A stretch of 64,000 nucleotides of DNA from Squalus acanthias. Its lineage: Eukaryota. The notes beneath the pieces were generated by a model, which was not told where the DNA came from, did not search any database, and saw only the letters and a program-made list of their open reading frames with translations. This document shows, one piece after another, positions 1 through 25,619 of this stretch. How positions within the stretch are numbered: position 1 is the first letter of the stretch; the number at the start of each line of letters is the position of its first letter. A program made the position numbers and the translations under genes. Where the stretch lies: contig CM059431.1 in the NCBI GenBank assembly GCA_030390025.1, positions 128,032,001 through 128,096,000 of the forward strand. Direction: 5' to 3'.

Positions 1-631
1 GACATTTGTTCACTATAGTTATAGTGCCGTGTTCCCTTATCTCCCGCCCAAATCTTAATGTTTGTCCTTTGTGAAATATTGGTGCTCAAAACTCCCAGCA
101 TGGGGCGATTCTTGTTTTTAACGGGTTTCGGTAGCACCTGAAACTGGCCAACTACCCGTTAATGTTTTCTCCATTGTTGAACCGGCTGGGAGCCTCCCTG
201 GCTGGGTTTTGGGGGCCCCCGAATACTTGTTTAATCACCTGAGAATGGCTCTCTCAGTGTAGAGCCGTGGGGGTATTTGTGTATTGATGTGTCTGGATGG
301 GCCTTCAATTGCCCAGTACAATGGTCCTTACTTGTGCATGGAAAACGATTCCAGCACTCATATCTTTTGCTATTGTCACAAATGCAAACAGGTTGCATCC
401 AGTCTTTATCAGTGCTTATCGAGCATGATCCCGTCTTATATTGAAATGTTTATTCGAACGCCATCTTGTCTGCCCACTGTAATTCTGGAAGCTTCTGCCA
501 CGATGCGCGGCGGCCATTTTACAGGCTTCTGTGTCCTTTTTAATCATGACAGCATTTCGTTTAAATAAACTGATCAAACGAATCTGCTTCTCTCTTGTTA
601 TTTTGAATCGCGACAATTGCAAAACTTTACA
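1..631 (-). repeat. Element B 3' LTR (partial)
   Basis: Starts TGTAAAGTTTTGCAATT on the minus strand directly after the PPT; direct repeat of 24873-25505. Confidence 0.93.
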
Positions 632-643
632 GTCCCTCCTGTT
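632..643 (-). promoter_or_regulatory. Polypurine tract of element B
   Basis: Minus-strand AACAGGAGGGAC abuts the LTR; identical to element A 9421-9432. Confidence 0.85.
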
Positions 644-1025
644 GATGCGAATAACTCTGCTGATCGTATCAATTAAATGTGGTGGTGAGCAAAATTATCC
701 CGATTCTCCACATCCAAACACTCCCTTAACTTACTATCTATGGTCTCCATGCCGTCCTCATTTCCCAGGGAAATTACATTGTTTAGACTTGGACAAACCG
801 TAGGCAGTATTGCCTTTAAACTTACATTGCGTATACGCCATCCTGGTGCAACAGGCCGATGCCTCTCGCACCACCTGTATATGCATGTTTTTATTATACA
901 AGGAAAAATAATCAAGACAACTCTTTTAAAATTACAAAGTTCCAAACTTAGTTACACATATTCATTACTAACAATCAATTACGAAAACACACATGGTAAA
1001 AATGGAACGGCGTCATCCTGGCCGT

Positions 1026-1726
1026 TTACGCACCACTTTCTTCGTTCACGCGCATGTAGCGTTCTCTCCATTCCCCTGTGTTCTCCTGCTTTGTGAGGCG
1101 TTTGCCTCTTTTGCAGTGCACGACCAATAGGTACACTACAATTATAACTTGGCACACTACCAAAATGTGGGAGGCTATCCTGATCCATGAAGGAACTTCA
1201 ATATTAATGAACAGATCCCACCACGGTGGGATTACTATGTCCAAAGTTTCTGTCCCTATCTCGACAGTCTTTTGTTCCAGGGTGTAAAAATGTTTTTGTG
1301 ATACCGCGACGGCTTTCAAAAGCTTGGTGAGGTGTTCAGGGAGAGGGGGAATGATGTATCCGAAATGCGCGACGAATCGCTGCAAGTCGGTGAAATTCTC
1401 TTTTACTGTTAGATGAACAGTGGATGGTTCAGGGATCGGGACAATTCGCTGCTGTGCCACTTCAACTTCAGCCCTGGGTGTAAAACAGAAACTGCTGTCA
1501 CTCACCGGACACCGGCTGTGGTTTGCATGCTGGTAGTTTTGCGCTGCAGTGGTAACACAATATGTTCCACCCCCTATGTAGGCCACCTGCGGAGGCACAT
1601 GATCTTGTGTCATTGCTTCCATGGTGCAATTCATGGGCTTTGCGCCAGCCGTTCTGAACCCGCATTGTGGTGTTAAAAAGGCATTCAAGTGCTGGGGACA
1701 CAGTATGATGTGTGCTGCCCGGCCAC
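1026..1726 (-). pseudogene. env: Element B env, C-terminal piece (Cys-rich region, TM anchor, cytoplasmic tail)
   Basis: Open frame nearly identical to the element A Env C-terminus; separated from the rest of env by the element A insertion. Confidence 0.92.
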
Positions 1727-3400
1727 TGTAGAATTCGCAATTATCGCGATTTGATTAATAAGGAGAAAACACAAAGTTTCGTTCAAACAGCTTTTTATTT
1801 CAGCAGAATGCTGTCAGGTTTAAATTGGACACAAGCAGCCTGTAAAATGGCCGCCGCACCTCGTGACAGAACATTCTAGACTTTTCAACAGGCAGACAAG
1901 ATGGCGTTCCATTAAACATTCTTGCAAGATCGATGACGATTCAGCACAGTGAAGATAATACACGAGACATTATGGGTTCACAGTATAAACATCGATACTG
2001 AAATCGGTCTCCCAGGTACAAAGGAAAGCCATTGCACCGAGTAATCAAGGGCCCATCCAAAGGACATTAGTATGTAAACTCCCAACGGCTCTACGATGAG
2101 AGAGCCGTTAGCAGGTAGTTATACATGACACTTGGAAGCCCCAAACCCCTCCAGGGAGAACACCGACCGATTTAACAATGGGAGAAGTATTAACAGGTAC
2201 TCAAACATTCATGAGTAGCCCCGAAACCCATTAAGAACGGAGATCACCCATACAGGACATTTGGGCGCCAAACCTTAAACAAAAGAATGGACATTATAGT
2301 TGGGCGGGAAACGGAAGAATTGTGCACTATAATTGCAGGCCCCAAACCGTCCATTCGCTCTCTTGCTCTTGACTCTTGCCTCTTGTTCGTGCTCCTGCAT
2401 TCGTGGTTGCTCCTGTGTTTTATCCGGTCGATTCGTAACCTCGTGGCTGCTCCTGTGTAAAAGACTGTTGAACTTTCTGATCCGTTCGGATCTACCTCGT
2501 GTCGCGTAACGAAGACCTATGTTGGTAACTGGCAGCGGAACCAAAGGCCCGAGATGAGATGAGATGAGATGAGATGAGAGGAGAAGAGAAGAAGACCATA
2601 TCCATCGCCACGGTCAGTAAATCCCGACCGCGCCTGTAGGTCGATCAGCCAAGTCTTCTCAAACAGGAAGTTTTCTTCGTTAAACTTTTAACAAGACATA
2701 TTGCATCAACGATAACTGGACTGTGCAAACACATCGTATCAGTGATATTGACAACGGTGCTCCACGATTATACTTTGAAGCCAACCAACAGAGGTCTTCA
2801 CTACAGCGGACGGTCCAGCCGACTGACCGAGCAGCAGAAGCAGTAAACAAGTGGGACCAGGAGATCTCCTGACCAACACGTGGGTGCTGCGGTGAAAAAC
2901 ATCCGATCAGCTATTCGGGTTTTCTCCGAGTTATTACGAGTGGTGAGCATGAGTCTCGAGATCCTACGAAGCTAGTTTAGGATAGATATTGATAGGGGAG
3001 GGTTTAAAGATTAAGGATATTTGTAATGTGTGCCCTATTTACGTTGTGCCGTTCGTTCCTCGTTTCCCTAAGAGTGATTATAACTGTTTGTAAGATTGTA
3101 CTGTCATTAATCTGTGCGTATGACATGTATTTCATAATTTTAAGTATCATGCAATAAAGATTTTCCATTTCGTACCGTTCAAACCAAGTCTACATGAGTT
3201 TTATCTCCATTACTGCTCTCGCATCTAAGTCCAGTGTCTAGAACCGTAAGGGAGAGTGATTCGAACCACTCACAGGGGTGTCTAGTGTTCCCAGACTGGC
3301 TGGAGACCAGGCCTAGACCCGCACTGACATACAGGCTGCACAGAGCCGCGTGAATCTCACAGGCTACGAGACACGCAGGGTCAGGAGAGAATCCCTTACA
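1727..3400 (+). repeat. Element A 5' LTR (1674 bp)
   Basis: Direct repeat of 9433-11096. TATA-like TATAA near 2328, (GAGAT)n near 2551-2580, AATAAA at 3153-3158. Confidence 0.96.
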
Positions 3401-3404
3401 GAAA

Positions 3405-5216
3405 ATGGCGACCGCGGCAGGACACTGGCAGCGAGAGGGTAGTGTGTTAGATTTTGGAATGACTGTACGAAATGTGATGCAGGAAAAGATAGCGGATTAC
3501 GTATTTGGAAAGGTTAATCTAACTAAAAAGTGGATAAGCGAATTGTTAGCGGATAAGAGCCCACTAGAGGCAGCTGAAAGGTGGACTGATAGTAAGGAGC
3601 ATAAAAAGGCAGTTGAGAAAGCAGTCTGGCTTATGTGCTACAAAAGGCAGGTTCAGATTTCAAACCAGACCAATACAGCGCTAACCGCTCGAATCAAGCA
3701 GTTAGAGGAGGAAATGGAGGAGAAGGTTTCTGGAGGGGAGGCGCTCATTAAGAGTTTAAATGAGTTACGCCAGGAAAGCCAGGAAGTCTCCAGTTACCTT
3801 AAAACAAGGGTAGAGTATCTCGAGTGCCAGATCACTGAAGCAAAATTGAACGAGAGTAGGATGAAGGAAAGATGTAACCGCCAAGCTGCCCAGATAAGAA
3901 CTCAAGAAGAGAGCTTAATGGGGGTTAGGTCGGCGTATAAGTTGGCCCTTGAGGATAAGTTTCAGGGAGCCGACCATAGCGCCTGCCAAAAAGAGATAGA
4001 GAGCCTCAAAAGGGCCGTGAATAATGCGAACGGCATGGTGTGCCTTATCAATCCGTCGGCGCGCCAGCCGCTAGTAAATGAGAGATTTAGAAATTCCCCA
4101 CCAAGTAAAGCAGAAGAAGTAGTAGCCACTGCGCCCTCCGCGCCACCCAGCTATTCAGAAACCTGGGTTAGGGAGGAAGCAACGGAAGAAACAAAAGAGC
4201 CCGTTGAAAAGGAAGTAGAAAAGGGATCGTTGTATCCAGTAACGGGGATTAAAAGGGGCCCAAGCAGAAACGGTGGGGAAGAACCGGGGGATCTCCTCGG
4301 ACAGCTGGTGTTGCCTCACAGTTCACATCAGCTGAGGGCCATGATAAACCACGTAAGGAAGCTGACCGAGATAGACGACCCTTCCGTACATTTCAGGGAA
4401 GTTGAGCAAGCCGCAGCCATTAACGGCTGCGATGATGGGGAGACAGCAAAAATGCTGCTGTTCTCGTTAGATAGCTCGGTCCTTCAGTGTCTCTCAGGCG
4501 ATAGCAAGAGGGGAAATAAAAGTTATGAGGAATTGAAAAATGAGGTCCTAGAAGTAGTGGGAGCGAACGACGGAGGTCCGTTTGCTAGAGTGGGACAGAC
4601 AGTGCAGATGGAGGGAGAACCCCCGAAGGTTTTTGCCGACAGGCTGTGGCCAGTATATGAGCGCAGCTGTCTAGGTGCGCCCGAGCGCGAAGATGTGGAA
4701 GGCGCCGCTTTAATTCATTGGCTTAGGTGCATCATAGCCAACAGTTTACCAGCCGTTAGAGAGCAGGCAAAAGCCTGGTTCGATCCCAATGACCTCAACC
4801 TTACGGAAGAGTCGGTCTTGAATCGACTTACGTTAGGTTACCGTAACATAAGGGGTATGACGACACGTCCCTTTAAGGGAAGAGTACATGAGGTACGACC
4901 CGCAGCCCCAGCTCAGAGAGAGTGGCATCAGGAGGGTAATCGCGCCCCACAGGCAAGTAATGCCTGTTACGGGTGTGGGAAGACAGGGCACTGGCGCAAG
5001 CACTGCAGGAACCCTTGGAAGGATTCCAAGGATAAAAATCCCGCGGTCCGAGCCCAGGCGCCTGTCCCGCCTAAGGAAGCAAAGGCACCCACCTCTCCCG
5101 AAGACCTCGAAGCAGTGTTAGGAGTCATGCGCAAGATGGTTTTGAATGCGCGTGGACAGGTGGCGGTCGCAACCGGCCCCGTAGGTGCCGCAGGACCGTC
5201 TAATAGTACCCAATGA
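3405..5216 (+). CDS. gag: Gag (603 aa): N-terminal coiled coil, capsid-like region, CCHC knuckle
   Basis: Intact ORF just after the LTR; CYGCGKTGHWRKHC zinc knuckle; homologous to element B gag. Confidence 0.92.
   Translation: MATAAGHWQREGSVLDFGMTVRNVMQEKIADYVFGKVNLTKKWISELLADKSPLEAAERWTDSKEHKKAVEKAVWLMCYKRQVQISNQTNTALTARIKQLEEEMEEKVSGGEALIKSLNELRQESQEVSSYLKTRVEYLECQITEAKLNESRMKERCNRQAAQIRTQEESLMGVRSAYKLALEDKFQGADHSACQKEIESLKRAVNNANGMVCLINPSARQPLVNERFRNSPPSKAEEVVATAPSAPPSYSETWVREEATEETKEPVEKEVEKGSLYPVTGIKRGPSRNGGEEPGDLLGQLVLPHSSHQLRAMINHVRKLTEIDDPSVHFREVEQAAAINGCDDGETAKMLLFSLDSSVLQCLSGDSKRGNKSYEELKNEVLEVVGANDGGPFARVGQTVQMEGEPPKVFADRLWPVYERSCLGAPEREDVEGAALIHWLRCIIANSLPAVREQAKAWFDPNDLNLTEESVLNRLTLGYRNIRGMTTRPFKGRVHEVRPAAPAQREWHQEGNRAPQASNACYGCGKTGHWRKHCRNPWKDSKDKNPAVRAQAPVPPKEAKAPTSPEDLEAVLGVMRKMVLNARGQVAVATGPVGAAGPSNSTQ
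3406..3423 (+). promoter_or_regulatory. Primer-binding site, tRNA-Ser-like, overlapping the gag ATG
   Basis: TGGCGACCGCGGCAGGAC lies 5 nt after the LTR and is identical in B (23778-23795, minus). The tRNA identity is inferred from the TGGCG...GGCAGGA pattern. Confidence 0.7.
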
Positions 5217-6371
5217 CTAGAGTCCACGCAGCCTGCCTACCTGTGTCCTTTTAAAAGACACGCACAGGAGGGGGTCTGCGGTGAGGAGGCCAGGTTAAAA
5301 GAGCAGGCCTTGCGGGAGGAGAACGCCCGCTTAATAGGGAAAATAGATAGGCTGGAAGGGCAGCTTAGAGAGCAGGCCCTGCGGGAGGAGAACGCCCGAT
5401 CAATGGGAGAGTTAGACGTGCTCAGGCTAGAAGGGCAGCTTAGAGAGATAAAAGCAGCCTACAGGGTAGCCAGGAGCAGGGAGTATGAGGATTTAAAACA
5501 GGATAGAAATCTGCAGCCTCCAGCAGGTGAGTTTTCACAGAAACAAGCAGGGGCGGTGGCCTGTCTTAAGGGAGGGGCCAGACCTGCGAGTGGGGAAGCA
5601 CAGCCCCAGGTAGGACCACAAGGCACACAGGCAGGCGTAGCAGCTTGCATCAGGGGAAGGGACATCCCGGACGATCATGCAGCGTTTTTCTGGAGTTGGG
5701 GGTTAGATGACGAGGACCCCAGGGTACCCTGGTCAGATGAGGATAGTGCAGATGAGCATAGTGATGACGACGGGTGGTTTCGGAGGAACGGTCCCTTTTA
5801 CGATATGGGGAGAATGCGGGCTGCAGATAGAGATCCACACAGGGTGGACACACAAGCTGCAGGTCCCGAGGACAGGAGGGAGGAGCTAGAGGAGGCAGGG
5901 CCAGCCGCTATAGGAGCACAGAGAGTACCAATGTGGTTCCCAGAGGGGTGGCCGCCCGCTTTGAACGTCCAGTCCTCAGGGGAGGCAGAGATCACGAGTG
6001 AAGGGCCGCCTGCTGGGCCGAGCAGGGCGGAGCCACGAAATGCCAGCCCCGAGGTTAGGGAGGCGGAGTCAGCGGAGGCGGAGCTGGCGACTGTGATGGA
6101 ACCCCAGGTCATCCCGTTGGAGGTCTCGGAACCCGGTCCGTCCGTCACGGAGCCCCCGCCCATAGCAACTCCCCGTAGGTCAAGCAGAGAACCCCAGCCC
6201 AGGAGGATGTGGTCATGTCCCCAGACTGCCCCAAGGCGTAAGTTTCAGGTTAAGATAACCCGGGTAGAGACAGGCCACATCGAAGCAGTAACAGGCTGCG
6301 GCAGATCAGAGGGAAGGGTCAGTGCCCTCCCACCGTCGGGAAGAGCTCGCAGCAGCCTTCTCAGAATTTAA
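5217..6371 (+). CDS. Readthrough ORF X (384 aa) in frame with gag: pol leader, coiled-coil repeat, integrase C-terminal tail homolog
   Basis: No stop from 5217 to 6368. Starts LESTQPAYLCP (B pol: LEPAQPVYLCP) and ends GRARSSLLRI (B pol: GKARGSLHRI). Confidence 0.8.
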   Translation, partial: LESTQPAYLCPFKRHAQEGVCGEEARLKEQALREENARLIGKIDRLEGQLREQALREENARSMGELDVLRLEGQLREIKAAYRVARSREYEDLKQDRNLQPPAGEFSQKQAGAVACLKGGARPASGEAQPQVGPQGTQAGVAACIRGRDIPDDHAAFFWSWGLDDEDPRVPWSDEDSADEHSDDDGWFRRNGPFYDMGRMRAADRDPHRVDTQAAGPEDRREELEEAGPAAIGAQRVPMWFPEGWPPALNVQSSGEAEITSEGPPAGPSRAEPRNASPEVREAESAEAELATVMEPQVIPLEVSEPGPSVTEPPPIATPRRSSREPQPRRMWSCPQTAPRRKFQVKITRVETGHIEAVTGCGRSEGRVSALPPSGRARSSLLRI

Positions 6372-6659
6372 AGGGGCCGCCCTGAGAACGGGCGGCACTG
6401 TAAAGTTATTAGTTTAAGGTTAAGTTTTAAAGTTTTAGTTAAGTTTTAAGTTTATTAGTTCAAGGCTAAGTTTGTAGTGTTTTAACAGATAACGATAAAA
6501 TGATGGGAGTTTTAAGGCTAGGTTTAGAGGAAGTCTATTCAGCAAACGTTGAAGTTTACGTGAGGCGAGGTCAGGGGACCCGCTCACCCTTCACAAAAGC
6601 CAGAGACTTTTTGCGAGGCTGGCTACCTCATTCTATCTGATCACAGGAACCAAGGAAGG

Positions 6660-9011
6660 ATGGAACGACTTATAGTATTGCTCGTGGCAATCGAATGTGG
6701 ATTGGCCTATCGAGGCCACACCAAGGATGTCGTGGTGTTTGGATGTTCCGGGGACACGGCCCCCATCGCGGTGGATGGGACCGGGAGACGGAAGGCAGAG
6801 GGGACCAGCACCTATTTCCACAAGGGAAGGTGGCCAGGATGGCTGGGAACGAACTCAACGGAGTATTCCAGCACATCGGGGTTCGCCTACAAAGAGACTT
6901 CTTTAATGTGCCCCAAAGTACGGATCATCGCACCCAGGATCAGCGTCACCGTCGGCAAACGGATTTGTTTGACCTGCAGTGGGGATGTCCCATTGAGCCG
7001 ATGGTGGTGGCTGCGAAAGCTGAGCAAAACTATGAGGAACTCTTCGGTTGAGTGGGAGCGACTGGGTAATAATACCCATCGGACAATTACGGGGACAGAC
7101 GGACAAGTGAAAGTCTGTTGGGACAAATGGTGGGAACCGGATGAGGGAATTTATGTTTGTATGTGGGGGTCAAAGTACGTTTGCCCCAAAGGCATCTCCA
7201 TATTTTTTATTAATCAGTGGCAGGATAACGGACAGGGGATGAGGTGGGATGCGAGCACCAGGGGGTGCGGAGCCCCATACTCTCCGATCCCAGTAAATGC
7301 CACTGAGCTCATTACGCGCCCACGCAAAGCCCCGCCCACGATTCCGGTGGTTCTAACTGAGGAAGAAGGGTGCCCTAAAGCTAGTAAGGGACCCGGGAAC
7401 GGTTTGGTACTGGTCCCCACAGACCAGATACTATTTCAGGGGGTACATTACGCGGTGGCCTCGGTGATTTTAAATCTCACTGAGGTACGGTTACCAGAGT
7501 GGTGCCCCAAAAAGACGGAACAGTTGTATCAGGTCCTGTTGACCAAGATGTTCAGGCAATTTTACGAGTTTGATTTTTCAGAAATTGATAAGACAAGTTT
7601 ATACACCGCACCGCAGGAAGCTTTGGATCAAGTAGGGAGGCAAAGAAGGGGTTTGGTGAACGATGCGTTCACTGCTTTTAACACAGGGACATCTGTGGTC
7701 AACGCTCTAGACAGTGTGGAGCTGCAGACCCAGATTAATGGTTTAAAAACACAGTTAAAGGACATCCTAACAGATGAGAATAAAGTGGTAGGGTCGGGTC
7801 TGCACGAGGACCAAGCCATGACTCTCCATTTAAAGGAAATCATAGCAGAGCTGGAGAAACATGCGCGTACGGTAAATGCCCTGATCAGGGAAGATCGGAA
7901 TGCATCCGATCAAGCTGCGCAGAACGAGGTGTGCGTGCTTTACGGGGCGTGGTTACTGGGCGAGGGCCGCAGTAATTTGGAGGATTTAAAACAAGGTTTG
8001 GTTCCGTCCTGGATAAGTAACAAACACCTGCGGGCGCTCCACCCTTTTCAGAACGCATTAAGTCCGTGCCAGCTCAGGCTAGCTTCAGAAGCTTACCCAG
8101 TCCCCGTGGACTGCGGACGTTCAAACCATACTATTATGGGAATAGTATTACGCATGCCGGTTTTGGGCAACACAGCAAAGCCCGCCCCGGTATATCGGGT
8201 AGAGAACATTGGTGTCATTCAGGGGGGAGCCCACATTCGTTATGCAGCGGTTCCACCTTACGTCATCCGCTGGGAGCAAACGATGACAGGTACAGATCTC
8301 TCTGGTTGTCGTGGCAGGGGAGCACACATAATACTGTGCCCCCAGCACTTGAATGCCTTTTTAACACCACAGTGCGGGTTCAGAACGGCTGGCGCCAAGT
8401 CCATGAATTGCACCATGGAGGCAATGGCACAAGATCATGTGCCTCCGCAGGTAGCATACATCGGGGGTGGAACATACTGTGTTACCACTGCAGCGCAACA
8501 CTACCAGCATGGAAACCGTAGCCGGTGTCCGGTGAGTGACAGCAGTTTCTGTTTTAAACCCAGGGCTGAAGTTCAAGTAGCACAACAACGAATTATCCCA
8601 ATCCCTGAACCATCCACTGTTCATCTCACAGTAAAAGAGAATTTCACCGACTTGCAGCGATTTGTCGCGCATTTTGGATACCTCATTCCCCCTCTCCCTG
8701 AGCATTTAACCAAACTTCTGAAAGCCGTCGCGGTATCACAGAAGCATTTCTATACGTTAGAGCAGAAAACTGTCGAGATAGGAACAGACATTTTGGACAT
8801 AGTGGTTCCACCGTGGTGGAATCTGTTCACTAATATTGAAGTGCCCTCATGGGTCAGAATAGCCTCCCACATTTTAGTCGTCTGTCAAGTGTTTATTGTA
8901 GTGTACCTATTGTTCATACATTGTAAAAGAGACAAGCGCCTCACCAAGCATGAGAACACGGGAGAGTGGCGAGAACGTTACGTGCGCGTGCACGATGAGA
9001 GCACCGTGTAA
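6660..9011 (+). CDS. env: Envelope glycoprotein (783 aa): signal peptide, Ig V-like domain, furin site RQRR, fusion peptide, heptad repeat, TM
   Basis: Hydrophobic N-terminus; RQRR|GLVNDAFTAFNTG at aa 327-343; N-glycosylation sequons; TM IASHILVVCQVFIVVYLLFIHC. Confidence 0.92.
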   Translation: MERLIVLLVAIECGLAYRGHTKDVVVFGCSGDTAPIAVDGTGRRKAEGTSTYFHKGRWPGWLGTNSTEYSSTSGFAYKETSLMCPKVRIIAPRISVTVGKRICLTCSGDVPLSRWWWLRKLSKTMRNSSVEWERLGNNTHRTITGTDGQVKVCWDKWWEPDEGIYVCMWGSKYVCPKGISIFFINQWQDNGQGMRWDASTRGCGAPYSPIPVNATELITRPRKAPPTIPVVLTEEEGCPKASKGPGNGLVLVPTDQILFQGVHYAVASVILNLTEVRLPEWCPKKTEQLYQVLLTKMFRQFYEFDFSEIDKTSLYTAPQEALDQVGRQRRGLVNDAFTAFNTGTSVVNALDSVELQTQINGLKTQLKDILTDENKVVGSGLHEDQAMTLHLKEIIAELEKHARTVNALIREDRNASDQAAQNEVCVLYGAWLLGEGRSNLEDLKQGLVPSWISNKHLRALHPFQNALSPCQLRLASEAYPVPVDCGRSNHTIMGIVLRMPVLGNTAKPAPVYRVENIGVIQGGAHIRYAAVPPYVIRWEQTMTGTDLSGCRGRGAHIILCPQHLNAFLTPQCGFRTAGAKSMNCTMEAMAQDHVPPQVAYIGGGTYCVTTAAQHYQHGNRSRCPVSDSSFCFKPRAEVQVAQQRIIPIPEPSTVHLTVKENFTDLQRFVAHFGYLIPPLPEHLTKLLKAVAVSQKHFYTLEQKTVEIGTDILDIVVPPWWNLFTNIEVPSWVRIASHILVVCQVFIVVYLLFIHCKRDKRLTKHENTGEWRERYVRVHDESTV

Positions 9012-9420
9012 TAGGAAAATGGCGTCACTCCCGCTCGCCACGTGCGCCGCGGAAGTTTGTACTCATTGTAAATACGTTGGAAACTCGATATGTTTAAGAG
9101 TTGGGATTTGTTTATTTTGGTGATGGTGTTGATTGTGTGGTTTTGGGTTTTGTTTTTCCTTTCCCTGAATAAAAGATGAATATACAGGTGATGCGTGAGG
9201 TATCGGCCTGGTTACGCCGGGAAGGAAAACAAGTGGTGTAAGTTTAAGGGCAAATGATGCCTACGGTGATATAAAATGTAATTTTCTTGGGAAATAAGGA
9301 CGACACAGAGACCCTAGTCAAGTTAAAATTTATGGGATTAATTTACTGGATTCGGAGTGAAATCGAGATAAGATTGCTCACCACTGAGTTTTTGATACGA
9401 TAAGCGGAGTTATTCGCATC

Positions 9421-9432
9421 AACAGGAGGGAC
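9421..9432 (+). promoter_or_regulatory. Polypurine tract of element A
   Basis: AACAGGAGGGAC immediately before the 3' LTR TG. Confidence 0.85.
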
Positions 9433-11096
9433 TGTAGAATTCGCAATTATCGCGATTTGATTAATAAGGAGAAAACACAAAGTTTCGTTCAAACAGCTTT
9501 TTATTTCAGCAGAATGCTGTCAGGTTTAAATTGGACACAAGCAGCCTGTAAAATGGCCGCCGCACCTCGTGACAGACTTTTCAACAGGCAGACAAGATGG
9601 CGTTCCATTAAACATTCTTGCAAGATCGATGACGATTCAGCACAGTGAAGATAATACACGAGACATTATGGGTTCACAGTATAAACATCGATACTGAAAT
9701 CGGTCTCCCAGGTACAAAGGAAAGCCATTGCACCGAGTAATCAAGGGCCCATCCAAAGGACATTAGTATGTAAACTCCCAACGGCTCTACGATGAGAGAG
9801 CCGTTAGCAGGTAGTTATACATGACACTTGGAAGCCCCAAACCCCTCCAGGGAGAACACCGACCGATTTAACAATGGGAGAAGTATTAACAGGTACTCAA
9901 ACATTCATGAGTAGCCCCGAAACCCATTAAGAACGGAGATCACCCATACAGGACATTTGGGCGCCAAACCTTAAACAAAAGAATGGACATTATAGTTGGG
10001 CGGGAAACGGAAGAATTGTGCACTATAATTGCAGGCCCCAAACCGTCCATTCGCTCTCTTGCTCTTGACTCTTGCCTCTTGTTCGTGCTCCTGCATTCGT
10101 GGTTGCTCCTGTGTTTTATCCGGTCGATTCGTAACCTCGTGGCTGCTCCTGTGTAAAAGACTGTTGAACTTTCTGATCCGTTCGGATCTACCTCGTGTCG
10201 CGTAACGAAGACCTATGTTGGTAACTGGCAGCGGAACCAAAGGCCCGAGATGAGATGAGATGAGATGAGATGAGAGGAGAAGAGAAGAAGACCATATCCA
10301 TCGCCACGGTCAGTAAATCCCGACCGCGCCTGTAGGTCGATCAGCCAAGTCTTCTCAAACAGGAAGTTTTCTTCGTTAAACTTTTAACAAGACATATTGC
10401 ATCAACGATAACTGGACTGTGCAAACACATCGTATCAGTGATATTGACAACGGTGCTCCACGATTATACTTTGAAGCCAACCAACAGAGGTCTTCACTAC
10501 AGCGGACGGTCCAGCCGACTGACCGAGCAGCAGAAGCAGTAAACAAGTGGGACCAGGAGATCTCCTGACCAACACGTGGGTGCTGCGGTGAAAAACATCC
10601 GATCAGCTATTCGGGTTTTCTCCGAGTTATTACAAGTGGTGAGCATGAGTCTCGAGATCCTACGAAGCTAGTTTAGGATAGATATTGATAGGGGAGGGTT
10701 TAAAGATTAAGGATATTTGTAATGTGTGCCCTATTTACGTTGTGCCGTTCGTTCCTCGTTTCCCTAAGAGTGATTATAACTGTTTGTAAGATTGTACTGT
10801 CATTAATCTGTGCGTATGACATGTATTTCATAATTTTAAGTATCATGCAATAAAGATTTTCCATTTCGTACCGTTCAAACCAAGTCTACATGAGTTTTAT
10901 CTCCATTACTGCTCTCGCATCTAAGTCCAGTGTCTAGAACCGTAAGGGAGAGTGATTCGAACCACTCACAGGGGTGTCTAGTGTTCCCAGACTGGCTGGA
11001 GACCAGGCCTAGACCCGCACTGACATACAGGCTGCACAGAGCCGCGTGAATCTCACAGGCTACGAGACACGCAGGGTCAGGAGAGAATCCCTTACA
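9433..11096 (+). repeat. Element A 3' LTR (1664 bp)
   Basis: Differs from the 5' LTR by a 10-bp indel (1871-1880) and one substitution seen by eye (G2938/A10634). Confidence 0.96.
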
Positions 11097-11284
11097 CCAC
11101 GACAACCCGAGAGATCGGTACCTGTCATCGTTTGCTCCCAGCGGATGACGTAAGGTGGGACCGCTTCATAGCGGATGTGGGCTCCCCCCTGAATGACACC
11201 AATGTTCTCCACCCGGTACACCGGGGCGGGCTTTGCTGTGTCGCCAAAGACCGGCATACGTAGCACTATACCCATGATGGTCTG
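11097..11284 (-). pseudogene. env: Element B env, middle piece between the A and C insertions
   Basis: Encodes MGIVLRMPVFGDTAKPAPVYRVENIG...DLSGCRG, collinear with A Env. Confidence 0.92.
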
Positions 11285-15513: not shown

Positions 15514-15532
15514 TCTTTTGGGGGGGGGAGAA

Positions 15533-15726: not shown

Positions 15727-17198
15727 GTATGGTTTGACCGTCCGCAGTCCACGGGGACTGGGTATGCCTCTGAGGCTAGCCTGAGCTGGCACGGGCTTAA
15801 TGCGTTCTGAAAAGGGTGGAGCGCCTGCAGGTGTTTGTTACTTATCCAGGACGGGACCAAACCTTGTTTTAAATCCTCCAAATTACTGTGGCCCTCGCCC
15901 AGTAACCACGCCCTGTATAGTATGCACACCTCGTTCTGCGCAGCTTGATCGGATGCGTTCCGATCTTCCCTGATCAGGGCATTTACCGTTCTCGCATTCT
16001 TCTCCAGCTCTGCTATAATCTCTTTTAAGTGTAGTGTCATGTCCTGGTCCTCATGTAACTCAGACCCTACTACTTTGTTTTCGCTTGTGAGGATGCTTTT
16101 TAATTGTGTTTTTAAACCATTGATCTGGGTCTGCAGCTCCACGTTGTCTAGAGCGTTGACCACAGATGTTCCTGTATTAAAGGCAGTGAACATATCGTTC
16201 ACAATACCCCTTCTTTGTCTCCCCACCTGACCCAAAACTTCGTGTGGTGTGGTGTACAAGCTTGTTTTGTCAATCTCTGCAAAATCAAACTCGTAGAATT
16301 TTCTGAACATGTTTGTCAACAGGACCTGGTACAATTGTTCCGTCTCTTTGGGGCACCACTCTGGTAAACGCACCTCGGTGAGATTTAGAATCACCGAAGG
16401 CACCGCGTAATGTACCCCCTGAAATAGTATCTGGTCTGTTGGGACCAGTACCAAACCATTCCTGGGCCCCTTAGTGGTTTTAGGGCACCCTTCCTTCTGA
16501 GCCAAAACCACCAGAATCGTGGGAGGAGCCTTGCGTGGGCGCGTGATGAGTTCAGTTGCGTTTACCGGGATCGGGGAGATTTGAGCTCCGCACCCCTTGG
16601 TGCTGACATCCCACCTCATCCATTTCCCGTTATCCTGCCACTGGTGTACGAAAAATATGGATATACCTTTGGGGCAAACGTATTTCGATCCCCACATACA
16701 AACATATATTCCCTCATCCGGTTCCCACCATTTGTCCCAACAGACTTTCAAGTGTCCGTTAGTCCCCGTAATTGTCCGATGGGTATTGTTACCCAATCGC
16801 TCCCACTCAACCGAGGAATTTCTCATAGTCTTGCTTAACTTCCGTAACCAGCACCATCGGCTCAATGGGACCTTCCCATTGCATGTCAAACAAATCCTTT
16901 TGCCGACGGTGACGCTGATTCTGGGTGCAATGATCCTCACTCTGGGGCACAGTAAAGAAGTCTCTTTGTAGGCAAATCCGGATGCGCTGGAGTATTCCGT
17001 TGAATTCGTTCCCAGCCATCCCGACCACCTTCCCTTGTGGAAATACGTGGCGGTCTCCTCAGCCTTTTGCTCCCCGGTCCCATCCATCGCGATGCGGCCC
17101 GTGTCCCCGGAGCAACCGAACACAACGACATCCTTGGTGAGGCCCCGATAGGCCAATCCATATCCGATCGTTGCGAGCACTATCAGAATCGTTTCCAT
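15727..17198 (-). pseudogene. env: Element B env, N-terminal piece (signal peptide, Ig-like domain, RQRR)
   Basis: Open frame collinear with A Env up to DCGRSNHT, then runs into the element C LTR. Confidence 0.93.
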
Positions 17199-17477
17199 CT
17201 CTCCTGGTTCCTGTGATCAGATAAAATGATGTAGCCAGCCTCCCAAGAGTCTCTGGCTTTTGTGAAGGGTGAGCGGGTCCCTTGACCTCGTCTCACGTAA
17301 AAGGACATGTATGCTGGATAGACTTTAACTATTCCTATCTCTAACTCCCATCATTTTACCATTTACTTTTACAAATTAAGCTACAATCTTACCAAACTCA
17401 TAAAACTATAAACTTAAACTTATAAACTTATCCTAAACTTAAACTGTACAGCGCCGCCCGTTCCCAGGGCGGCCTAC

Positions 17478-20400
17478 CTAAATTCTGTGAAGGCTGCCAC
17501 GAGCTTTTCCCAGTGGTGGGAGGGCACTGACCCCTTCCTTTGATCTGCCGCAGCCTGTCGCCGCTGCGCTGGGACTGGGATCTCCCTGGGCTGCCTTGAC
17601 TTTGAACTTACGCCTGGGGGCGTACGGGGGACTTGACCACGACTTCCTGGGCTGGGGTGTCCAACTTGACCTACGGAGGGCTACTTTGGGCAAGATTTCC
17701 AGGGCCGACGGACCAGGAACCAAGAGTTCCACCGTCATGGCCTGTGGTCCTACCACAGCCGCTGGCTCAGTCTCCCCTGGCTCCGCCACCCTGAACTTGG
17801 GATTTGCAGTTTCTGGCTCCACCCTACTTGGCCCAGTATGTGGTCCTCCACTCGCAATCCCTACCTCCCCCAAGGGCAAGACTTCCAGGGCCGACGGACC
17901 GGGAACCGAGACTTCCACCGTCACGACCTGTGGTCCTACCACAGCCGCTGGCTCCGTCTCCCCTAGCTCCGCCCCCCTGGGCTCGGGATCTGCAGTTTCC
18001 GATTCCACCCTGTGTGGATCTCCACTCGCAGCCCCTATCTCCCCTGAGCTTGAGTCGAGGATGAAACTTTCGTCCTCCGACCCCAGCACCTCTCCGATCG
18101 GGTCACTACCTTGGTTGAGCTCCTCGAGCTCTTCCTCATCTGAATCCCAACACCAAGAAAAGATCCTACACTTTTCTAGAATGTCCTCTCCCCTCAAGCA
18201 GGCTGCTTTACCGGTCTGTGTGCCCTGCGGTCCTACCCGGGGCTGCGAGTCCCCACTCGCAGGTCTGGCCCCTGTGATTGGCCCCTGTGCACCCAGCTTA
18301 TACAACTTGCACTGGTTAATGTGGAACCATTTCGTGCGCCGAGGTACCTTTATGGCGTACACCATGGGACTCGCTTTATCTGCAATACTGTAGGGTCCCA
18401 TATACAGTGGTTCCAAACTCCCTACTCTGGCATAGTTCCTAACCATGACCTGATCTCCGACTTCCCACTCCTGCTTCTTACGAGGTTCCAGCAACAGGCG
18501 ATTGCCCTGATGCTGTCTTCCCATGTTCCCAGCCGCCTGCTCGTAAACCTGCTTCAGGCGCTCCAAGAGGGTCTGGACAAACTTGTCCCTTTCCACCTCT
18601 TTGAGCTGGACCTCAGTGAGCACCGGGGCTAGTAAATGGGTGGGGTGGGGGTTCGCATGATCCTCCCAGTCATCACCTCGTACGGGGAATACCCCGTACT
18701 CTTCGACTGGATGGCCCGGATTCCCATGAGGACTAGAGGCAGAATCTCCGCCCATTTTTGGGGCGAGTTCATAGTCTCTTTCCTCAGCTTCTCCTTGAGG
18801 GTCCGGTTCATGCGTTCAACAATCCCGGATGACTGGGGATTGTGCGCTACGTGCCACTTCCCTTCAATGCCCAAAAGCATGAGGGTGTTCTGCATCACCT
18901 GGCCGGTGAAATGACTCCCTTGGTCTGACTCCACGAAACGGGGGAGTCCCCACCGCGAGAACACTTCCCGGACCAAGATCTTGGCAGTAACCAGCGCCGT
19001 AGCTTTTCTACAGGGGAAGGCTTCTACCCATTTGGAAAACACATCCACCAAGACGAGGCAGTATTTGTAGCCTCCCTGGGTGGTGGGCAGGGGCCCTATG
19101 TAATCGATCTGTATCAACTGCCATGGTCCCTCCACCCTTCTGATGTGCCCCATGTGCACTTTCCTTTTCTGGGGGTCTGGGTTGTTTGCAGCGCACACAA
19201 GACAGTTTGCACAGAACTCGCGGACCTGCTCCCTGAGTCCCGGCCACCATCACGCCTGCTCTACCCGTTGCCAGGTAACCTCGGGCCTGGGGTGCCCTGC
19301 CCCCGGCCCCTCATGAGCCAACTGGAGGAATTCCCTCCTGTGCTGCTGTGGCACAACCCACTGCTCCTCGCGGAACAGCATGCCTTCTTTAACGGAGAGG
19401 GTTGTCGTACTGTACGGGTCCTCTACCTGCTTACCCTCAGTAATCGTTCTGAGAACTGCTTTTAGGGCGGGATCCTGGTTCTGGACGGTCTTAAGGTCTA
19501 GGGGCAGTGCTACCCTGGCGTTCCCGGGATTCCCTTCCCTGCCTTGGATCGCTGCCATGGGTCCGGGTCCATAGGGGTCCCAGAAAATGCCGTTACGGGC
19601 ACCCTCCCTGGCTAGCGCATCCGCCTGCTGGTTGACCTCCCCGCGGGGCTCTGTGGAGGAGTGAGCCTTCACCTTATGGATTTAAATGTCCCCTTCCTCC
19701 CCAAGTGCTGCTAGGATCTTTTCCAGCAAGGGCTTCACCGTTAAAGGTCGCCCGTCCGCGGAGGTATATCCACGGCGGGACCAAATGGCCAGGTATTCCG
19801 TACACGAATTGCACGTAAACATACTGTCCGACAAATTGTGTATGGGGTTGGGAAGATCTCTAGGTGGGTCACTACGTACGCCACCGCAGACGGCTCAGCC
19901 TGCTGCGCGCTCATGGTGCTAGGGAGCTTGATCGCCAGGGCAAGGTTTGCCGCAGGGTCATAAACTCCACACCCTGTGAGTCGTTCGCCAGCGGACACTG
20001 TGCTGGAACCATCAACATAAATTTCGCGACCTGTGGGATGTATCCCGGCCCGCAAACCTATGTTGACCTCCCACACCCCTTCTACCGAACACCGATGGGC
20101 TGTTCTGGGGTATACCAAGTTGGCCGCAAGCCTGGGCTCGCAAAGACCTTTAACTCTAAGATCCATCTGGGAAAGGAGAAGGGTCCAGCGCGCAATTCGA
20201 GTGCTGCTTACGGTCCCATCCTTAATCCTCCCATCTAGAAGCATCTTAGTTGGTGTATGATGGGTGAGGAGAGTGATGGGAGAGAGCCCTGTGAAGATCG
20301 CTGATCTTTTCACAGCCCAATGCGTGGCTAAAAGATGCCTTTCGCAATTGGAGAAACTCCTCTCCACATCCGTTAACACCCTGGTCGAATAGACAACCGG

Positions 20401-21972
20401 CCTCAGCTTGCCGTGTCGCTCTTGGAGCAGCACAGCGCTCAAGCTGTCTCCGCTGGCAGCTACCTCCAGGAAAAACTCCTTCCCCCCATCTATGGCCCCT
20501 AAAGCTGGCGCGGTCTGCAAATCCCTTTTTAACTTCTCGAATGCTGCCTCACAACCCTCGTCCCAAGACCACTCCACTCCCTTATGGAGGAGTCGGAGCA
20601 GCGGAGCTGCTGTGGCCGCATAGTCCTCGATGAAGTCTCTACAGTAACTGGTCAGTCCCAGAAAGGACCTCACACCCGTTATGGTGTTGGGAATCGGTAA
20701 CTCCTGCACCGACTCCCTCCTAGCCTTATCTATGGCTCTTTCCCCAGCGCGAATGGTCAGACGCAGGAATTTTACTTCCTGCTGACCGATACGTGCTTTC
20801 TTAGGGTTAACTTTAAAACCCTTTCTCGCCAGCAACTCCAATAACTCGGCTAGCAGTGGTCCATGCTCCTCCCTTGAGTCCGTGAACAGGAGCAAATCAT
20901 CCACGTACTGTACTATCTGATTGGGCTGACTAAACTCCTTTAAACTTCCTGCCATACACTGATGGAAAATACTGGTGCTGTTGTGGAACTCCTGTGGCAG
21001 ACAGTTCCATGTGTACTGTTGTCCTTTAAAAGTAAAGGCAAACTTGTACTGGTCCTCTCGCCGCAGCGGGATGGACCAAAAACCGTTCGAATTATCCAGC
21101 ACCGTGAACGTGGTCGCGGATGCTGGGATACTCCCTATTAGGTCAGCAACTGCTGCTACTGTGGGCGCGCAGGCGGGGATGTTACTGTTAAGGACTCTGT
21201 AGTCCACCGTGGCCTTCCACGAATTATCCGGCTTCCTAACCGGCCATAATGGGGAGTTCACGTGTGTGGCTATCGGCCTCAACACGCCCTGCTGCACCAA
21301 TGAGGACATTGCTGTCTCCATGTCGGGTTCTGCTTCTTTGGGGAAGTTATACTGCTTTTGGGGCCGGGTCATGGGGTCCCCATCTACGCTGACCTCAAAC
21401 CCGGTAACCCTCCCACAATCGTGCTTGTGGGTTGCAAACACGTGCATATTATCTGACACGTACGCTTGCATGTCCGTTGGGACATCCGCGACCATAAGCC
21501 CGAGGTCGTAACCTCCGGATGGCTTCATGGTACACAGGGCCCCTTTACCTTCCTTCCCTGGGATTACAACTACCTTGCCTTTCCCACCCTTGGCTCCCCA
21601 GAGACAGTGATTCCTAAGGTCCACGAGGATCCCGTGTTCCGATAGGAGATCCGATCCGAGGATACCTCTGCCACCCCCCTCTTGCCATTTCATCAGTATG
21701 CACTTCCATGTGATGTGGAGTGCTCCTAAATGAATGGAGAGCGGGATGGAGAACGCACCAGCCTGCTTTTTTCCTGTGAACCCCGCTAATGTGTATGGGA
21801 CCTTGGTAGACAGCGGTGAGTCAAAGGGGCTATCCGTATGAATCACGGTGCATGAAGCTCCCGTTTCCAACAAATAACTACCCTTCTGCTTCTCTACCTC
21901 CATCTCTACCAGGGGTCTTTTCCACGCATCATAGCTGAGCGGACACAGGTAAACGGGCTGCGCGGGCTCTAG
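17478..21972 (-). pseudogene. pol: Element B pol: PR, RT (YVDD), tether RNase H, second RNase H, IN (HHCC, DDE, GPY) and ~270-aa tail
   Basis: LLETGAS; QYVDDLL; FLEVAAS...; IYVDGSS...SAQQAE...KVKAH...NQQADALA; QIDYIGP/ESDQG/IVERMN. Frameshifts near 19835 and 18645; stops at 19682-19684 and 19250-19252. Confidence 0.92.
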
Positions 21973-23796
21973 TCATTGGGTACTGGTGGACGGGGTTGTG
22001 GCATCTGTGAGGCCGGTAGCGACTGCCACCCTTCCTTGTGAAATCATGAGGGACCGCATAGCTCCCAACATTGATTCTATCGCAGCGGGATGGATAGGCA
22101 CACCAGCTCCTCTCTCAGAGACAGGCGCTTGGGTTCGGGCTGCGGGATTTTTATCCCTGGGGTCCTTCCAGGGGTTCCTACAGTTCTTACGCCAGTGACC
22201 TGTCTTCCCGCACCCGTAACAAGCACCACTGGCTTGTGGGGCGCGGTTTCCCTCCTGATGCCACTCCTTTTGAGCCGGGGCTGCGGGCCGTGCCTCATGC
22301 ACCTTTCCCTTAAGGGGACGCGCTCCCGTGCTCCTAGTGTTACGATACCCTATGGTGAGTGGATTTAGGACAGACTCCTCTGTTGTGGCGGGGTTAGTGG
22401 GATCAAACCACGCTTTGGCCTGCTCCCTGACGGCTGGCAAACTGTTGGCTACTAAACACCTGAGCCAATGAGTTAAACCGGCACCGTTCAGGTAATTGCC
22501 CCCTGGCGCGCCTGGGCAGCTACGCTGGTATACTGGCCACAGCCTGTCGGCGAAAACCTTCGGGGGTTCTCCCTCCATCTGTATGGTTTGACTCAATCTG
22601 ACGAACGGACCTTCGTCATCCGCCCCTAACACTTCTAGGACCTCGTCCCGTAACTCCTCATAGGTTTTATTTCCCTTCTTGCTCTCGTCTGAGAGACACT
22701 GGAGGATCGAGCTATCTAACAAGAACAGCAGCATTTTGGTCTTTTCCACATCGTCGCAGCCATTAATTGCTGCGGTCTGTTCTACCTCCCTGAAGTGTAC
22801 GGAAGGGTCGTCTGACTCGGACAGCTTCCGTACATGGCTAATCATTGCTCTTAGCTGGTGTGAGCTGTGAGGCAATACCAGCTGGTTCAGGACATCCCCG
22901 TCATCCCCATTGGCTGCGTTCGGGCCTCTCTTGTGACCACGGAGCGGACACATCGGTCCCGGTCTCGGCTCTACCTCCAGGGATTGTCCTACCTCGGGAA
23001 CCTCCTTTTCTATTTCCACCACTTCCTCCCTTACCCAGGTTGCCGAATAGCTGGGTGGCGCGGAGGGCACAGTGGCAAATACCTCCTCTGCTTTGTCTGG
23101 TAGGGATTTTGGGAATTCCCTACCCACCTGTGGCTGGTTTGCTGACGGGCTGATGAGGCACACCAAGCCGTTTGCCTTATTCAGGGCCTCTCTTAGGTTC
23201 CCTATCTCCTTCTGGCAAACACTGTGGTCGGCTCCCTCATGCCTATCCTCGAGGGCCATCTTATATGCCGCCTTAACTTCCTTCAAGCTTTCTTCCTGGA
23301 CTTTTATCTGGTTAGCTAGGCGGGCACACCGTTCTCTAATCCTACCCTCGTTTAATTTCGCTTCCGTGACCTGACACTCTAGTTAATCAATTTTAGCCTC
23401 ATGGTGGTTGGCTACTATCTGGCGTTCCTGATGTAACGCATTCAAGGATGCAATGAGTTTCTGTCCTCCCGTGATCTTTTCCACCATCTCAACTTCCAAA
23501 TCCCTGATCTGAGCTGCCTGTGCAACAATGACCTGGTCCGAAAGTTGGACTTGCTTCTTGTAGCACATCAGCCAGACTGCTTTCTCCACCGACTTCTTAT
23601 GCTCTTTACTGCCTGTCCATTTGATGGCTGCGTCTAGCGGACGCTTATCCATCAGTAGGTCACTTATCCACCTTTTGGTTAAGTTAACCTTCCCAAACAC
23701 ATAGTCGGCTACCCTCTCATCCATCACATTTCACCTATTCACACCAGGGTCTAAAACATTACTCTCTCGCTGCCAGTGTCCTGCCGCGGTCGCCAT
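21973..23796 (-). pseudogene. gag: Element B gag with two in-frame stops
   Basis: Starts MATAAGHWQRE as in A; stops at 23731-23733 (A has CGA here) and 23383-23385; CYGCGKTGHWRKNC knuckle. Confidence 0.92.
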
Positions 23797-23800
23797 TTTC

Positions 23801-25505
23801 TGTAAGGGGTTTCGGCGTGCTTGTATCATAGACGGTGCTGGTGCGAGGTTAGGCCTTCGTTGCCTAATACTATTGCTTGCTCTGGTCTCCAGCCAGCCTT
23901 GTTGCAATAAGCACCTGTGAGTGGTTTGACCCACTCGCCCTTACGGTTCTAACAATGGACTTAGGTGCGAGAGCAGTAATGCAGAGAAAAACTCAAATAG
24001 ACCCGGTTGAATAGTACAAAATGGAAATCTTTATTGCATAGCGTCCAAAATCATGAAGTACATGTCATAGGCGCAAATTAACGAGAGTACAAGTATACAT
24101 AGATTCATAAAGCTTGGTCTATGGTAATGAAGAACGCACGGCACATCGTAAAAAGGGGAACACATTATACTTTATCCTTAATAAAACCACCCTCCCCTAT
24201 CAATACCTACACTACATCTAGATTTGTAGGATCGGGAAACATGCTCACCACTCGTGATACTTCGGAGAATTTTAAAGTGAGGCACTCGGCTCGTTTCGCT
24301 GCAGCGCCTGACTGTCACGTGTTTGGAGGGGTCTCTGTACCCCACTTGTTTATCTTCGCTGCTGCGACAAGCAGGCCGGGCTCCCCGTTGTCATGAAGAA
24401 CTCGAGAGAACTCGGGCCCGGCTGTAGAACTCAAAGAAAAGTCTTCCTGTACCGACACCAGTTGTCGGTAGAATTCAAAGAAGAGTCTTTGACCGGTTCG
24501 TGCAATAACCTGTAGAGTTCAAGAAGTGGGTCTTATATTTTCGGGCGCGGTCGGGGTTTACTGACCGCGGCGGCACGTGGATCTTCTTCTTTTCTTGTCA
24601 TTTCGTCTTGTCTTGTTGGGCCTTCGAGTCCAGACACCGTTTACCGACTCTCGGGATGGTGCACCCGGTCACTTGCCTTTGTCGAGGCGGCTCGTTCCGA
24701 TTGAGCTCCACCCAACATTCGAATAACCGTTCAGTGCGGCTAAAAGTTCAGAGTCAATAGAGTCCAGAGAAACACAGCAGGCTGCTCGTCCAGCAGAGCG
24801 ATACCCGAGGATCAGAACAGGAGAATAAGAGTTCAGCCCGAGTCAAGAGTCAGCAGAGTTAAGAGAGCGATGGACATTTGTTCACTATAGTTATAGTGCC
24901 GTGTTCCCTTATCTCCCGCCCAAATCTTAATGTTTGTCCTTTGTGAAATATTGGCGCTCAAAACTCCCAGCATGGGGCGATTCTTGTTTTTAACGGGTTT
25001 CGGTAGCACCTGAAACTGGCCAAAACTACCCGTTAATGTTTTCCCCATTGTTGAACCAGCTGGGAGCCTCCCTGGCTGGGTTTTGGGGGCCCCCGAATAC
25101 TTGTTTAATTACCCGAGAATGGCTCTCTCAGTGTAGATCCGTGGGGGTATTTGTGTATTGATGTGTCTGGATGGGCCTTCAATTGCCCAGTACAATGGTC
25201 CTTACTTGTGCATGGAAAACGATTCCAGCACTCATATCTTTTGCTATTGTCACAAATGCAAACAGGTTGCATCCTGTCTTTATCAGTGCTTATCGAGTAT
25301 GATCCCGTCTTATATTGAAATGTTTATTCGAACGCCATCTTGTCTGCCCACTGTAATTCTGGAAGCTTCTGCCACGATGCGCAGCGGCCATTTTACAGGC
25401 TTCTGTGTCCTTTTTAATCATGACAGCATTTCGTTTAAATAAACTGATCAAACGAATCTGCTTCTCTCTTGTTATTTTGAATCGCGATAATTGCGAAACT
25501 TTGCA
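23801..25505 (-). repeat. Element B 5' LTR (~1.7 kb)
   Basis: Ends CCCCTTACA followed by GAAAA and the PBS, as in A; homologous to 1-631 and to the solo LTR at 60249. Confidence 0.92.
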
Positions 25506-25619
25506 GTGGTACATGTAATGCTGTGAAAGGTGGGACCATAGTTTTGTTGTATTTGAGAGGGGAATACAGATTTTCTTTTTACGGCGGAAAGTAGTGTAAT
25601 GGTTTGTCACATGGTCACA

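Follow-up and report, generated by a model that had tools for sequence, protein, structure and literature searches.

Pairs of competent and defective endogenous retroviruses (ERVs) are known in which the defective form has a copy number at least as high as that of the competent one, and in which trans-complementation and recombination have been inferred (PMC10924933). In mouse, koala and cattle, defective ERVs are known that have become more numerous than their competent parents, and most of these have lost their coding capacity. Lokiretroviruses are defined by a reverse transcriptase (RT) that lies apart from those of canonical retroviruses, and have as their hallmark an envelope protein (Env) resembling the fusion glycoprotein F of the Mononegavirales, with an R-X-K/R-R site (PMC7947760, PMC9040795). 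This Env is described as having a signal peptide, the R-X-K/R-R cleavage site, a fusion peptide, a coiled coil and a transmembrane (TM) segment (PMC7947760). The words Chondrichthyes, cartilaginous and shark are absent from the main text of both of these papers. Here, we analysed a stretch of 64,000 nucleotides (nt) from the cartilaginous fish Squalus acanthias (the window; positions 128,032,001 to 128,096,000 of contig CM059431.1, assembly GCA_030390025.1), which at 1727-11096 carries a provirus with gag and env between two long terminal repeats (LTRs) and without the enzymes of pol. We consider it likely that this element, the window copy, is a pol-deleted derivative (A-delta) of a recently active lineage with an F-like Env, hereafter the A lineage, and that it depends on full-length A-type elements.

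A first reading of the letters of the window (the original prediction) had described LTRs differing by one substitution and a 10-bp indel, a perfect 4-bp target-site duplication, intact gag and env, and no protease (PR), RT, RNase H or integrase (IN) core. All of this was recovered. When the window was compared with itself, 1725-3400 and 9431-11096 formed an alignment of 1676 columns that contains one mismatch and a single gap, the 10-bp indel, and the duplication was read directly (Table 1). gag and env are open over 603 and 783 amino acids (aa). No Pfam match to PR, RT, RNase H or IN was found in the gag or env frames or in the open reading frame (ORF) between them, termed X; two other elements of the window, the older minus-strand provirus B, in the env of which the window copy is nested, and the Ty3/gypsy-type element C, were positive in the same search. 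We delimited the missing part by comparison with B. Positions 3401-5248 align to B 23800-21941 at 74% identity, and 5573-8156 to B 18273-15701 at 80%. B 21940-18274 has no counterpart in the window copy, which has an unmatched insert of 324 bp instead; as the original prediction held, the element is not a simple local deletion of B, and its gag and LTRs are well diverged from those of B (74-78% nt identity). Because the match of B to the IN SH3-like domain ends just before 18273, no enzyme remains in the window copy, only the tail of Pol. The insert contains a 69-bp tandem duplication (5300-5447), and its peptide in the X frame is predicted to be coiled-coil-like. X as a whole (384 aa, 5217-6371) lies in the gag frame, with a single TGA between gag and X. 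In B, gag and pol are arranged likewise, with the gag stop and the next frame in phase. The first 37 nt past the 5′ LTR are also the same in the window copy and in B, and the purine run at 9424-9431 adjoins the 3′ LTR. The gag ATG at 3405 overlaps the site resembling a primer-binding site (PBS; 3406-3423), leaving no leader between PBS and gag; the same holds for B.

The provirus belongs to a large mobile family. The original prediction had proposed a search for copies that share the junction at different target sites, and we ran it against the 3.7-Gb genome assembly. A junction query (4900-6000) gave 3901 first-look candidates, and all 40 that were scored were full length, 96-100% identical, and spanned the junction. 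With the 324-bp insert alone as query there were 1589 first-look candidates, and again 40 out of 40 scored were full length (99-100%); these first-look figures are not copy numbers. The gag-X-env layout was the same at all 29 other junction loci. Sixteen whole copies were fetched, making 17 full copies with the window copy. Sixteen of the 17 have a perfect 4-bp duplication, different in each and with different flanks, and the 5′ end of the remaining copy lies in an assembly gap. Among the 15 complete LTR pairs, six show no substitution, four show one, four show two and one shows six (divergence 0-0.36%); divergence between pol-less copies is 2-7%. Moreover, the junction at 5216/5248 is bridged by contigs from four public runs, belonging to four studies and four organism labels (5182-5433 in two runs, 5178-5384 and 4951-5201 in the others), and one run also bridges 5572 (5404-5625). 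An assembly artefact at the junction is therefore excluded, and the element is found at many loci, not as a single copy. We conclude that the pol-less family numbers about a thousand copies, is defective and young, and most likely spreads by means of the enzymes of its full-length siblings. Between 39 and 52% of sampled junction words were present in 14 runs of five organism labels from six studies, and the pol-less form may occur in more than one organism label. Differences in contig depth among gag, X and env cannot be ranked.

Full-length siblings were detected through their LTRs. A query with 2700-3400 found 40 places at 99-100% identity, which resolved into 15 pairs and 10 single places. 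The LTRs of six pairs are about 7.7 kb apart, as in the pol-less form, those of seven pairs are 10.98-11.07 kb apart, and the remaining two pairs have other spacings (9.6 and 18.1 kb). A spacing of 11.04 kb (7696 - 324 + 3667) is the size expected of a full-length element. One of the long elements was read from the end of gag to the start of env: the end of gag is 96.6% identical to the window copy, the insert is absent, and pol is an open frame of 1507 aa, separated from gag by one stop and in phase with it, with 84% nt and 89% aa identity to the pol of B. Its Pol tail and X share 90.8% identity. Of the genomic matches to this pol, 31 were scored, and all 31 were 99-100% identical with open frames of 1506-1507 aa; one of these is located within another of the long elements. 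A search of a protein library for an A-like gag fused to pol among longer proteins had found none; this weak result was overtaken by the genomic full-length A-type elements. Elements of B type, named as helpers by the original prediction, are numerous too, and many have open frames, of 1494-1496 aa for pol (among 60 scored), 789 aa for env (86 scored) and about 655 aa for gag (91 scored). The PBS-like site, the block with the putative polypurine tract (PPT) and the LTR ends are identical in A and B. As to which type acts as the helper, the closer full-length A-type elements, with their LTRs at 99-100% and an open 1507-aa pol, support an A-type element rather than B as the probable natural helper, and on this point the original prediction was not borne out.

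We then consider the coding state of the family. In the 17 full copies, gag is open in at least 13, env in at least 12 and X in all. dN/dS was calculated by pooled pairwise Nei-Gojobori comparison, with pS and pN as the synonymous and nonsynonymous components. It was 0.21 for gag (pS 0.069, pN 0.0152; 13 open copies), 0.083 for env (pS 0.065, pN 0.0056; 12 open copies) and 0.755 for X (pS 0.0275, pN 0.021; 16 copies). When variable sites were counted, the nonsynonymous-to-synonymous ratio was 0.68-0.75 in gag, 0.28-0.37 in env and 1.9-2.6 in X, with a like picture for singletons and for shared variants. Judged by these figures, gag and env are under strong purifying selection and X is near-neutral, so that of the three frames for which a dN/dS check had been proposed two appear constrained and one does not.

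The selection seen in gag has to be read together with its phylogeny. In an 801-bp segment of gag, identity between the window copy and the seven long elements is 98.3-99.3%. A tree that includes 30 pol-less copies shows the seven scattered among these, with no fixed difference between the two forms, and in five of the seven the nearest neighbour, alone or tied, is a pol-less copy. The mean gag distance between forms is 0.0134 vs 0.0124 among 22 pol-less copies of the same subclade. Thus, the pol-less and full-length forms share a gene pool, and the low dN/dS therefore belongs to the A population and is not creditable to the pol-less genomes alone. The junction would be the only part not refreshable from full-length genomes, and would have a more recent common ancestor than the alleles of gag and env; the low diversity there (pS 0.017 in the insert part of X) may reflect this lack of refreshing. 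What stands of the proposed satellite lineage is a non-autonomous multi-copy family; that it is a separate, long-lived lineage is not supported, as its gag interleaves with that of full-length A.

The insert is not confined to the A lineage. Fifteen of 91 scored B-type gag matches end near residue 455, and seven of these have an env match 1.2-1.5 kb downstream. These 15 places (loci L047 and L048, or G000 C2 and C1, and 13 more) look like another lineage without pol, its gag and env being of B type. Two B-type pol-less copies were read. Their gag is 95-96% identical to B, and the 5′ breakpoint is the same, after about the tenth pol codon. Next come inserts that share 86-93% nt identity with that of A and have a single 69-bp unit where A has two, and then a B-type tail at 96%. 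Between the A and B lineages, pS is 0.17 in the insert (8 synonymous differences), compared with 0.49 in gag, 0.36 in env and 0.29 in pol. Possibly, the module moved between the lineages after their split, or it is constrained. The presence of the same deletion module in both lineages points to recombination between co-packaged genomes as a route of spread for such modules.

Whether X is a functional protein seems doubtful to us. The stop between gag and X stands in the same TGA-CTAG context in all 17 copies and in B, and the B-type pol-less version has TGA-CTGG instead. UGA CUAG is described as a read-through-prone context (bioRxiv 10.1101/2021.04.18.440353). Among the 17 copies X has three indel blocks, all in frame, and its indel density is comparable to coding sequence; each of the spacers and LTRs shows 15-60 indel blocks, about a fifth to a quarter of them multiples of three. 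Within the family, the insert part of X has a dN/dS of 1.10. No homologue of X was found in a large protein library among proteins of 211-672 aa, and in a protein atlas it has no look-alike and a low "recognition" value. The insert weakly matches the coiled-coil part of the B gag (E 0.007), and no match to the A gag was seen. We take X to be a frame kept open rather than a folded domain with its own function, and the openness of its tail may be inherited from the Pol of full-length genomes.

In env, a synonymous cold spot lies at window 8160-8609 (pS 0.005-0.022 vs 0.03-0.19 elsewhere, 12 copies). An ORF in an alternative frame, 8021-8521, overlaps it and is open in 16 of 17 copies; it was rejected as a gene, as it lacks a Met, carries a stop in B and has a pN (0.0068) no lower than its pS (0.0049). 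RNA structure was also rejected as a cause of low diversity: in a 200-nt scan, minimum free energy z-scores ranged from -2.2 to -2.8 in the insert and from -0.5 to -1.4 in the env cold spot, and the strongest signals were in gag (-3.4 to -3.8), giving no specific support for RNA structure.

How these observations might fit together can now be stated for the reading that we think likely, that of a derivative dependent on full-length A. A-delta would have arisen when the 324-bp insert took the place of PR-RT-RNase H-IN, with both LTRs, the PBS and PPT, gag and its stop in a read-through context, the pol tail and env being kept. A-delta cannot copy or integrate itself; its RNA would be packaged, reverse-transcribed and integrated by the Gag-Pol of full-length A-type elements in the same genome. 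It would also recombine with these elements, and as a result gag (as seen in the interleaving) and presumably env would resemble those of the full-length virus and stay open. Trans-mobilisation, co-packaging, read-through translation of Gag-X and particle formation are all putative steps, which we infer from the genomes. Several points weigh against this reading. Recombination is deduced from the interleaving and has no measured rate. Were everything supplied by full-length elements, the degree to which gag and env are still open in pol-less copies would lack an explanation. The LTR sample consists of the 40 best matches to the LTR of the window copy, and represents one young subclade only; within it, pol was confirmed in two of the seven long-spaced elements. 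Frameshifts of 1 bp disrupt gag or env in some copies; each is a singleton and possibly an assembly error, so that the counts of open frames are lower bounds. No run on record as RNA was found to contain the junction, and no spliced joint was seen in contigs from the runs that do contain it, the RNA nature of which is a guess. Finally, B could serve as an additional helper, even if it is not needed.

The original prediction favoured an independent, long-lived satellite with selection on its own gag and env, making its own particles and taking Pol only from a B-type helper. The strong purifying selection on the gag and env of pol-less copies, the identity of PBS, PPT block and LTR termini in A and B, the many B-type copies with an open pol of 1494-1496 aa, and a deletion module old enough for a difference of about 11% between its A- and B-type versions all agree with it. 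Full-length A, however, is much closer than B (LTRs at 99-100% with open pol, vs a B pol at 84% nt), and with gag forming one interleaved pool without fixed differences the selection is not assignable to a satellite; we regard this alternative as unlikely. It also seems conceivable that the pol-less form is useful to the population or is an adapted cheater, in which the insert, fused to Gag by read-through, biases packaging or Pol capture. gag and env would then be intact by cis preference, or because pol-less copies complement full-length copies with a broken gag or env. The shared 5′ breakpoint and homologous insert in lineages with a gag pS of 0.49 and an insert pS of 0.17, the invariant TGA-CTAG, the openness of X in every copy with its in-frame indels, and the ratio of six pol-less to seven full-length pairs in the LTR sample would suit such an element. 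But X is near-neutral overall and more so in its insert part, has neither look-alike nor homologue in the collections searched, and in the B-type version follows TGA-CTGG, and the low insert pS rests on eight synonymous differences, which together make this explanation very unlikely. A bolder form, in which the breakpoint and insert are an adapted cheater cassette that was moved by recombination between A and B, acts as a Gag-X fusion, gives a transmission advantage and leaves gag and env preferring their own genome in cis, we hold to be doubtful; if true, it would be a step towards a two-component retrovirus. That the family is an assembly artefact or a segmental duplication rather than a mobile family is hardly conceivable in view of the distinct duplications and flanks of 16 copies and the bridging contigs of four studies.

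For Gag, an N-terminal coiled coil is predicted; PSAP stands at aa 244, PPSY at aa 247 and a CCHC knuckle at aa 521, and all 13 open copies are 603 aa long with the three motifs. PSAP and PPSY are late-budding motifs. In the protein atlas, Gag adjoins clusters of retrotransposon Gag/PEG10 type (score 0.93); its AlphaFold2 model, made from a two-sequence alignment, is poor (pLDDT, the predicted local distance difference test, 36.9). In Env there are a signal peptide, RQRR at aa 327 with a hydrophobic peptide behind it, a long helix and a TM segment at about aa 730-757. Every one of the 12 open copies is 783 aa long, with RQRR at aa 327, 10 glycosylation sequons and 23 Cys. In the model of Env (32 sequences), helices occupy 330-444 and the C-terminal half has a pLDDT of 75-93; in the sequence, hydrophobic stretches lie at the N-terminus and at aa 730-757. 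Its sequence relatives are few: three named ones, from a skate and a sawshark, and 49 representatives in the large protein library. Env gave no match to the Pfam paramyxovirus F family (PF00523) at E <= 1 and no sequence match in the PDB. A Foldseek comparison of the model with the PDB, however, listed paramyxovirus or pneumovirus F proteins at all ranks from 1 to 50, the best being post-fusion F of respiratory syncytial virus (E 8.3e-08). The Env of the window copy thus shares with lokiretroviruses an F-like character, by fold and not by sequence, together with a signal peptide, cleavage site, hydrophobic peptide, helix and TM segment. The best matches of the RT of B in the PDB were gammaretroviral (3.4e-57) and foamy-virus (2.5e-51) entries, followed by Ty3 (8.9e-37) and HIV-2 (6.7e-13), which is not diagnostic of a group. 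The lokiretrovirus-like label of the original prediction is therefore supported for the A lineage at the level of the predicted Env fold, on which it rests, and not at that of the PF00523 sequence family.

The surroundings of the window copy are made up of further retroelements. The flanks, 1042-1726 and 11097-11275, are consecutive pieces of the B env and are 88-91% identical to the env of the window copy itself. The LTR pieces of B are 97.8% identical over about 635 bp, and its pol is broken in this window into frames of 743, 143, 206 and 445 aa, with Pfam matches to RT_RNaseH and RT_RNaseH_2 at aa 470-602. A dual RNase H in pol, tether plus RNase H, counts among the traits of lokiretroviruses. 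In element C (11285-15726, plus strand), also nested in the B env, the two LTRs of 194 bp show 100% identity, and an open frame of 1325 aa (11536-15513) encodes PR-RT-RNase H-IN; the 5-mers that flank it agree at four of five positions. Four of the 17 pol-less copies (loci L034, L036, L040 and the window copy) are nested inside A- or B-type elements, and three of these, the window copy among them, fall in one 380-bp stretch of env (window 7938-8314). This clustering may reflect a target preference or chance. Elsewhere in the window there are an LTR-like sequence at 60262-61848, 82-87% identical to the B LTR, and related inverted repeats at 31955-34624 and 58538-62678 (71-79%), which are probably older relatives or other retroelements. 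A tandem array with units of about 45-90 bp and 88-91% identity lies at 43688-43970.

Table 1. Coordinates of the pol-less provirus and of the parts of element B in the window.
Feature	Position	Strand	Basis or remark
B 3′ part: env 3′ end (1726-1042) and start of 3′ LTR (633-1; LTR cut by the window edge)	1..1726	-	
Left target-site duplication, CCAC	1723..1726	+	Read directly; same as 11097-11100
5′ LTR, 1674 bp, TG...CA	1727..3400	+	Self-alignment and direct reading
gag, 603 aa and TGA stop	3405..5216	+	Stop-to-stop frame 3354-5216
PBS-like 18-mer, begins with TGG, 5 nt after the LTR	3406..3423	+	Position; overlaps gag ATG at 3405
gag stop context TGA-CTAG, with X behind it in the same frame	5214..5220	+	17/17 full copies
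First ~10 pol codons, homologous to B and full-length A up to the 5′ breakpoint	5217..5248	+	Alignments
324-bp insert in place of PR-RT-RNase H-IN	5249..5572	+	No match in B
Remnant of the Pol C-terminal tail, downstream of the IN SH3-like domain, in frame; rest of ORF X	5573..6371	+	Alignments to B and full-length A
AT-rich, indel-rich spacer before env	6372..6659	+	
env, 783 aa and stop	6660..9011	+	Stop-to-stop frame 6564-9011
26-nt block ending in purine run 9424-9431 (PPT-like)	9407..9432	+	Same in element B
3′ LTR, 1664 bp	9433..11096	+	TG...CA ends, self-alignment
Right target-site duplication, CCAC	11097..11100	+	Read directly
B env piece between two nested insertions	11097..11284	-	
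B 5′ part: 5′ LTR, gag 23382-21976, pol 21972 to ~17478 (interrupted), env 5′ part	15727..25507	-	

Defective ERVs that are apparently complemented in trans are known already, and several of them resemble the form described here. In the ERVK[2-1-LTR] C-type and D-type of cattle, MusD and ETn, IAP and IAP I-delta-1, and KoRV-A and recKoRV, as in A and A-delta, a central segment is swapped and the LTRs and flanking parts of gag and env are kept. The bovine D-type, however, has no intact ORF, whereas gag and env are both open and constrained here. A-delta also differs from these pairs in that the replaced segment stands in frame behind a read-through stop, in that the module occurs in two diverged lineages, and in virus group and host class. 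EAV-HP of chicken (PMC3554524) has, like A-delta, lost the whole of pol and still makes independent insertions; as described there, it also lacks part of gag and env, which are complete here, and it is a relative of the alpharetroviruses with a canonical Env. The zebrafish BHIKHARI elements Bik-1 and Bik-2 (bioRxiv 10.1101/2024.03.25.586437) come close in another way, being endogenous, non-autonomous, recently active and related to lokiretroviruses, with a Gag of about 617 aa that has an N-terminal coiled coil, comparable to the 603 aa and predicted N-terminal coiled coil found here. According to that account, Bik has gag only, without pol or env; A-delta retains env and has full-length siblings in the same genome. 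With the lokiretroviruses themselves (PMC7947760, PMC9040795) the A lineage shares the order gag-pol-env between LTRs, an F-like Env and a vertebrate host, the likeness to PF00523 being one of fold where sequence gives no match. The F-like Env lineage studied here has named relatives in cartilaginous fishes, a host class that the main text of those two papers does not mention. The shared deletion module, for its part, shows a possible way in which such modules spread, by recombination between co-packaged genomes. What is new relative to the known pairs is that gag and env are kept complete and that two lineages have the in-frame module in common, along with the virus group and host class. A pol-less form of about a thousand copies with constrained gag and env, alongside dozens of full-length siblings with an open pol, lends itself, as a natural system, to the question of what has to be retained in cis by a defective retrovirus.

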